In this document: piece after piece, positions 55,500 to 56,538 of the stretch
How positions within the stretch are numbered: the first letter of the stretch is position 1
Layout: every line of letters begins with the position of its first letter
Assembly (NCBI RefSeq): GCF_003018255.1
Contig: NZ_CP027440.1
DNA length: 64,000 bases
Reading direction: 5' to 3' (one strand)
DNA from: Escherichia coli
Lineage (GTDB): Bacteria; Pseudomonadota; Gammaproteobacteria; Enterobacterales; Enterobacteriaceae
Position numbers and translations under genes: made by a program
The notes under the pieces: model-generated
The model's database searches: none
What the model was told of the DNA's origin: nothing
The model's input: the letters and a program-made list of their open reading frames with translations, nothing else

Positions 55500-56538
55500 A
55501 TGGGGCAACAAAAGCAGCGTAATCGACGTTGGGTTCTGGCCTCGCGTCCGCATGGCGCGCCGGTTCCGGAGAATTTCCGTCTTGAAGAAGATGATATCGC
55601 CACACCGGGTGAAGGACAGGTGTTACTGCGCACAGTTTATTTGTCACTGGACCCGTATATGCGTGGACGTATGAGCGATGAGCCATCTTATTCACCGCCG
55701 GTTGATAATTGGTGGCGTAATGGTCGGCGGTACGGTGAGCCGTGTTGTGGAGTCGAATCATCCTGATTACCAGCCTGGCGACTGGGTGCTGGGCTACAGT
55801 GGATGGCAGGACTATGACATATCCAGTGGTGATGATCTGGTGAAACTTGGCGATCATCCGCAAAATCCATCGTGGTCGCTGGGTGTGCTGGGGATGCCAG
55901 GCTTTACCGCTTATATGGGGCTGCTGGATATCGGTCAGCCCAAAGAGGGCGAAACATTGGTTGTTGCTGCGGCGACAGGTCCTGTGGGGGCGACGGTGGG
56001 TCAAATCGGCAAACTTAAAGGTTGCAGGGTGGTGGGGGTGGCCGGTGGCGTGGAAAAATGCCGCCATGCTACTGAGGTGCTGGGCTTCGATGTTTGTCTT
56101 GACCATCACGCGGATGATTTTGCCGAACAACTGGCGAAAGCGTGCCCAAAAGGTATTGATATCTATTATGAAAACGTGGGCGGTAAGGTATTTGATGCAG
56201 TGCTACCTTTACTTAATACATCTGCGCGCATTCCCGTTTGTGGCTTAGTGAGCAGCTATAACGCTACAGAGCTACCACCCGGTCCGGATCGTTTACCTCT
56301 GCTGATGGCTACGGTGCTGAAAAAACGTATTCGCTTGCAAGGATTTATTATCGCTCAGGATTATGGTCACCGCATCCAAGAGTTTCAGAAGGAGATGGGG
56401 CAATGGGTGAAAGAGGATAAAATCCACTACCGCGAAGAAATTACTGACGGTTTAGAGAATGCGCCACAGACGTTTATCGGCCTGCTGAAGGGTAAAAACT
56501 TCGGCAAAGTGGTGATCCGCGTGGCGGTTGATGATTAA
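55500..56538 (+). pseudogene. curA: NADPH-dependent curcumin/enone reductase curA (yncB) carrying a +1 frameshift near 55705-55709
   Basis: N-terminus [26 protein letters not shown]...[23 protein letters not shown] (frame of ORF 55407-55766) and the remainder [26 protein letters not shown]... (ORF 55678-56538) are in different frames; the span 55500-56538 is 1039 bp, one base more than 345 codons plus stop. Confidence 0.75.

Follow-up and report, generated by a model that had tools for sequence, protein, structure and literature searches.

CurA of Escherichia coli was discovered as the curcumin-converting enzyme of a human faecal E. coli, according to the account in PMC11407993. For the intact enzyme, the NADPH-dependent reduction of curcumin to dihydro- and tetrahydrocurcumin has been established (PMC11407993; PMC7175512). 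CurA also reduces benzalacetone-type compounds, and E. coli BL21 is without curA (PMC7175512); the active-site residues of CurA are not discussed in PMC7175512. The intact allele encoding WP_001317810.1 has the same synteny as the locus described here and the same DNA bar one base, and the repaired protein of our locus is 100% identical to WP_001317810.1. curA of K-12 is ca. 96% identical at the DNA level. An NADP-dependent oxidoreductase of Vibrio vulnificus (5ZXN/5ZXU), an intact orthologue from another genus, shows the same two-domain architecture of medium-chain reductases. Natural loss of CurA is represented by BL21 and by strains with a deletion running from curA into mcbR, such as EcPF18; like these, which have no reductase, the locus reported here is a case of natural CurA loss. 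It lies in a 64,000-nt stretch of E. coli DNA, the whole of which is called the window below. Compared with intact curA, the reading frame in the window is broken after codon 69, and normal translation can yield no 345-aa product. The case is that of a characterised accessory gene turned into a pseudogene by a textbook single-base frameshift, with no new element or mechanism.

Identification of the interrupted curA gene

The preliminary description had named the gene curA (yncB) and taken it for one reductase split over two frames, with a span one base longer than 345 codons plus a stop, a switch of frame at 55701-55712, and a frame that is restored when one A is removed. All of this agrees with our reading. 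The ATG at 55500 and the stop at 56536-56538 delimit 346 × 3 + 1 bases; GTTGATAATTGG lies at 55701-55712, where intact alleles carry GTTGATATTGG; and once the A is deleted, the translation is 345 aa long and does not differ from WP_001317810.1, the annotated CurA of strains 104 and JNE23-011 (the two genomes compared). In a 101-nt alignment with the intact curA of these two strains, there was a single gap and no substitution (GTTGAT-ATTGG in both strains vs GTTGATAATTGG in the window), and the +1 insertion was placed between codons 69 and 70. The context of the site is GAT-A-ATT, in which a lone A has become AA, and it is neither a homopolymer nor a repeat tract. The upstream frame reads MGQQ...SYSPPVD, followed by 19 unrelated residues and a TGA at 55764-55766. 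The native frame is thus left after Asp69, and the 276 remaining native codons stand in the +1 frame, through 56538.

When a 1241-nt query was compared with complete E. coli genomes, the best matches listed covered 1240 nt at 99.9% identity, and the best 71 complete genomes, all with curA annotated as intact, were at least 99% identical to the query. The genes stand in their usual order, mnaT, curA, mcbR, pqqU, and the neighbouring genes in strains 104 and JNE23-011 are collinear with the window. The resemblance is not due to chance, since each piece matches a characterised gene exactly and the synteny is conserved. As read from the DNA, the locus is curA, with one base inserted between codons 69 and 70. 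Its sequence and synteny are those of curA, but an intact reading frame of ca. 345 codons was not found; therefore, we file it as a curA pseudogene and not as a working member of the family. The coordinates are given in Table 1.

Table 1 Coordinates of the curA pseudogene and its parts in the window.
Feature	Position	Strand	Remarks
curA pseudogene, whole former CDS	55500..56538	+	1039 bp = 345 codons + stop + 1 inserted base
Lesion: AA in place of the single A of intact alleles	55707..55708	+	Site alignments; blastn gap at 55707
5' ORF, 88 aa: 69 native CurA residues and 19 out-of-frame residues, ended by TGA	55500..55766	+	
3' remnant in the native frame	55720..56538	+	Likeliest start Met74, 272 aa; mechanical ORF from ATG 55678

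A 210-aa antisense ORF (55498-56130, minus strand) was rejected as spurious; it gave no NCBIfam match and lies wholly within curA. With regard to polarity on mcbR, a promoter-like site was found at 56631-56658, upstream of that gene, and scoring for intrinsic terminators gave none after curA; no effect on mcbR is claimed from these two results.

Family assignment of the repaired protein

The repaired 345-aa sequence scored 606.6 bits against the NCBIfam CurA equivalog NF058644.1 (profile positions 1-334), above the curated cut-off of 440 bits. The 88-aa product reached 92.1 bits, matching only profile positions 1-61 of 336, and the 272-aa fragment 491 bits, also above 440, over positions 66-334. 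Pfam matches of the repaired protein were ADH_N_2 at residues 9-116 (E = 2e-44) and ADH_zinc_N at 161-300, and this combination of ADH_N_2 with the Rossmann ADH_zinc_N domain is that of the medium-chain reductase superfamily. Judged from its sequence relatives, which in the PDB include 1v3t, 2y05, and 4b7c, the repaired protein is a member of the zinc-independent leukotriene B4 12-hydroxydehydrogenase (LTB4 12-HD)/prostaglandin reductase branch of this superfamily. Its score against the LTB4 12-HD equivalog TIGR02825 was 256.5 bits, below the cut-off of 579.85; therefore, the protein shares the branch with LTB4 12-HD without being that enzyme. The closest solved structure is that of the V. vulnificus oxidoreductase 5ZXN/5ZXU, aligned over residues 8-340 (E = 4e-160), and the N-terminal stretch containing DPYMRGR is identical in the E. 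coli and V. vulnificus proteins. By analogy with the LTB4 12-HD/prostaglandin reductase family, we take the DPYMRGR segment of CurA to hold the Tyr and Arg residues of the substrate site.

Occurrence of the extra A in independent assemblies

In a public index of gene calls (NCBI and Logan), the exact 88-aa product was found on ca. 27 contigs and the 272-aa product on 26. One of the carrier contigs is an NCBI chromosome of 4,892,666 bp, probably that of the source strain, and the remainder are from Logan, that is, independent de novo assemblies from raw runs; the frameshift allele is thus already present in public assemblies. Four Logan runs were inspected (ERR3653889, SRR16940972, SRR25144985, and ERR4456071). 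Contigs of all four match the window across the insertion site without a gap, and direct site alignment of ERR3653889 and SRR16940972 displayed the extra A, identical to the window. The preliminary description had named GTTGATATTGG at this site in the source strain as the observation that would speak against a frameshift, and this sequence was absent from the site in every assembly of the clone.

The carrier contigs equal the window at 100% over 3.5-10.5 kb, and it is this identity of the Logan contigs that ties the source strain to the carriers. In SRR25144985, 17,824 of 17,825 positions agree, the one difference being a private SNP (47443 T>G) at which the window, SRR16940972, and JNE23-011 all have T. 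At 49077 and 61135, two of the positions where the window differs from JNE23-011, the alleles are common to the carriers that reach them. The private SNP therefore indicates that the carriers are distinct samples of one clone, which share the insertion by descent. Contig 57 of SRR16940972 ends within curA (window position 55988), ca. 280 nt past the insertion, and the other carrier runs continue through the gene; low coverage or a graph branch are possibilities for this end.

We also compared the window with close relatives. JNE23-011 differs from the window over 27100-64000 (36.9 kb) by 31 substitutions, one 21-bp indel, and the 1-bp indel of curA, and 21F61 differs over 1-28000 (28 kb) by 139 substitutions and one 5-bp indel. 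The 21-bp and 5-bp indels are whole tandem-repeat units. No other 1-bp indel was found in these two comparisons, which together cover the window. An indel-riddled assembly was accordingly ruled out, the sole 1-bp indel being that of curA, beside two changes of tandem-repeat units. Of the 31 substitutions between the window and JNE23-011, 28 fall within 2.8 kb at 28552-31382 (the gap, cybB, hokB, and trg region), which looks like a small recombination patch in otherwise near-identical DNA.

The insertion was present in none of the 5,426 complete RefSeq E. coli genomes, and the best match to the 101-nt site was 100 of 101 positions, in 4,337 genomes. The allele was likewise found in no GTDB species representative and in no JGI metagenome contig. 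The absence from all complete RefSeq genomes, together with the fact that one-base indels are the classic assembly error, would fit a strain with an intact curA in which the extra A arose as an artefact in a single assembly; the genome of the window itself is also outside the RefSeq complete set. However, at least four separate runs, with ERR as well as SRR accessions, gave the extra A on de novo assembly, and it is present on ca. 27 contigs overall. One carrier has a SNP of its own, which would not be seen if all carriers were duplicates of a single data set, and the close relatives revealed no further 1-bp indel over 28 kb and 36.9 kb. Long-read and pyrosequencing errors concentrate in homopolymer context, and the site is not a homopolymer. 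We consider such an artefact extremely unlikely. The preliminary description had left the choice between a real pseudogene and an assembly error; with the same A in four runs and ca. 27 contigs, the former stands and the latter is dropped. These results indicate that the extra A of curA is a real frameshift mutation inherited within one clone, to which we assign a probability of ca. 0.9.

curA is intact in the complete genomes nearest to the window, those of JNE23-011 and JNE112863 (human, Japan). Over 31383-64000 (32.6 kb), only three SNPs, the 21-bp repeat unit, and the curA insertion separate JNE23-011 from the window. Because the closest complete genome has an intact gene, the insertion is recent and clone-specific. 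The intact allele on which it arose occurs in 71 complete genomes, whose sources are chickens, pigs, turkeys, dogs, humans, and water. Since the extra A is absent from every other complete E. coli genome, it is a convenient marker of the clone.

Predicted consequence of the insertion for CurA

One A was inserted after codon 69, and the curA allele that received it is a widespread one in E. coli. From the ATG at 55500, ribosomes add 69 native and 19 wrong residues and terminate at 55764-55766, and the Rossmann NADPH-binding domain is no longer translated from the native start. Because ADH_N_2 spans residues 9-116 and the break is at 69/70, the GroES-like catalytic domain is split as well. From this domain architecture, we predict that CurA activity is abolished and that neither the strain nor its clone can use CurA to reduce curcumin. 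Low-level re-initiation at Met74 or spontaneous frameshifting may take place.

Re-initiation leads to the idea of a split, partly functional enzyme, in which the 272-aa fragment from Met74 would retain reductase activity, alone or with the 88-aa fragment. This fragment keeps the whole Rossmann domain, and its 491 bits exceed the cut-off of 440 of the CurA equivalog. The ATG at 55720 (native Met74) is preceded, 4 nt upstream, by GGTGG, a weak Shine-Dalgarno-like sequence, and the gene caller applied to the Logan contigs chose this start for the 272-aa product. However, the internal start is not a recognised one, and the fragment would be missing 73 residues of the catalytic domain (ADH_N_2, 9-116). 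The missing part includes the conserved DPYMRGR, which is identical in the V. vulnificus homologue, and no natural CurA-family protein so shortened was seen. A partly active fragment is therefore very improbable in our estimation.

Spontaneous frameshifting, if efficient, or a programmed +1 shift within 55675-55763 could in principle produce full-length CurA. The two frames overlap over these 89 nt (55675-55763), where a +1 shift would rejoin them, and two consecutive rare CGG codons occur in the 0-frame at 55723-55728; rare codons can promote slippage. However, the frameshift is not conserved, since the segment is single-frame in all 4,337 of the 4,337 complete genomes having it and the insertion is private to one clone. 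Conservation of the kind expected for a prfB-type site was not observed, the insertion being present in 0 of 4,337 genomes, 0 GTDB representatives, and 0 metagenome contigs. There is also no prfB-type motif at the site, neither a slippery codon with an in-frame stop nor a Shine-Dalgarno-like element 3 nt upstream: when 55675-55766 was read, a CUU-UGA-type site was absent, the 0-frame stop lay 57 nt past the insertion, and the nearest GGAG lay 8 nt before the last sense codon. A shift anywhere but at 55707 would, in addition, replace native residues. We give recoding hardly any weight against a plain frameshift mutation.

A phase-variable (contingency) locus was also considered and excluded, because no repeat tract is present at the insertion site; the indel is outside any homopolymer or short tandem repeat tract.

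On the basis of a real frameshift, annotation should label the locus a curA pseudogene with a frameshift; it should neither list two separate reductase genes nor correct the extra A as if it were an assembly error. The lesion is relevant to studies of curcumin metabolism in the gut, or to hosts for curcuminoid and phenylbutanoid production, only if the strain is used for these purposes.

Dispensability of curA in E. coli

At least 80% of curA is kept in 4,363 of the 5,426 complete genomes, and no match was found in 271. Roughly 790 of the 5,426 keep only the first 68-69 nt of the gene, as estimated from an evenly spaced listing. In EcPF18 (NZ_CP054219.1; L009, 3501-3724), the curA remnant is fused to an internal fragment of mcbR, and it is therefore the product of a curA-mcbR deletion. 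This deletion leaves 68-69 nt of curA and removes most of mcbR, whereas the window keeps mcbR and all of the curA DNA; because the point insertion leaves all of this DNA in place, reversion is possible in principle. The common curA-mcbR deletion also removes a colanic-acid/biofilm regulator.

With ca. 20% of complete E. coli genomes lacking curA, mostly via the curA-mcbR deletion, the gene is dispensable, and we saw no sign that it is essential. Since curA is missing from ca. one-fifth of the genomes, we infer that the frameshift is neutral or nearly so, and neutral or nearly neutral decay appears to be its simplest reading. An adaptive loss, in which CurA or transcription through curA-mcbR is selected against in some host-associated niches, is unlikely in our view, if less so than an active fragment or recoding. 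If it were true, the insertion would be convergent with the curA-mcbR deletion, found in ca. 15-20% of complete genomes, and with the absence of curA from BL21.

Other features of the window

A perfect pentanucleotide repeat, (GTAAC) × 11.2, was observed at 14607-14662 within a ydbD-like DUF2773 gene (ca. 14267-15617), which is broken in the window by several stops and frame changes. The repeat has exactly one unit fewer in 21F61, and the gene is annotated as 'frameshifted; internal stop' in both 21F61 and JNE23-011. A length-variable coding repeat of 5 nt could serve as a slippage-driven on/off switch.

ynbD (19074-20366) has an internal stop in the window (...TTGKDS*GKLPP...), and an 'internal stop' is also annotated in 21F61 and JNE23-011. 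As the stop is common to the relatives, ynbD is an older, shared pseudogene, unlike the clone-specific lesion of curA.

The intergenic region of tehB and ydcL contains a tandem array of the 21-bp unit CTTTTTCGGCATTGACTATGT, with three copies in the window (40503-40565) and two in JNE23-011, and a partial copy of the unit lies just upstream of this array.

In close relatives, a paaX fragment adjoins a fragment of a helix-turn-helix gene (L010, 15181-15540; ca. 12181-12540 of the window by collinearity), and the window and 21F61 align without a gap at ca. 12181-12540. Because only the paaX fragment is there and paaY is left, the phenylacetate (paa) cluster is deemed to have been deleted in this lineage, as read in the relatives.
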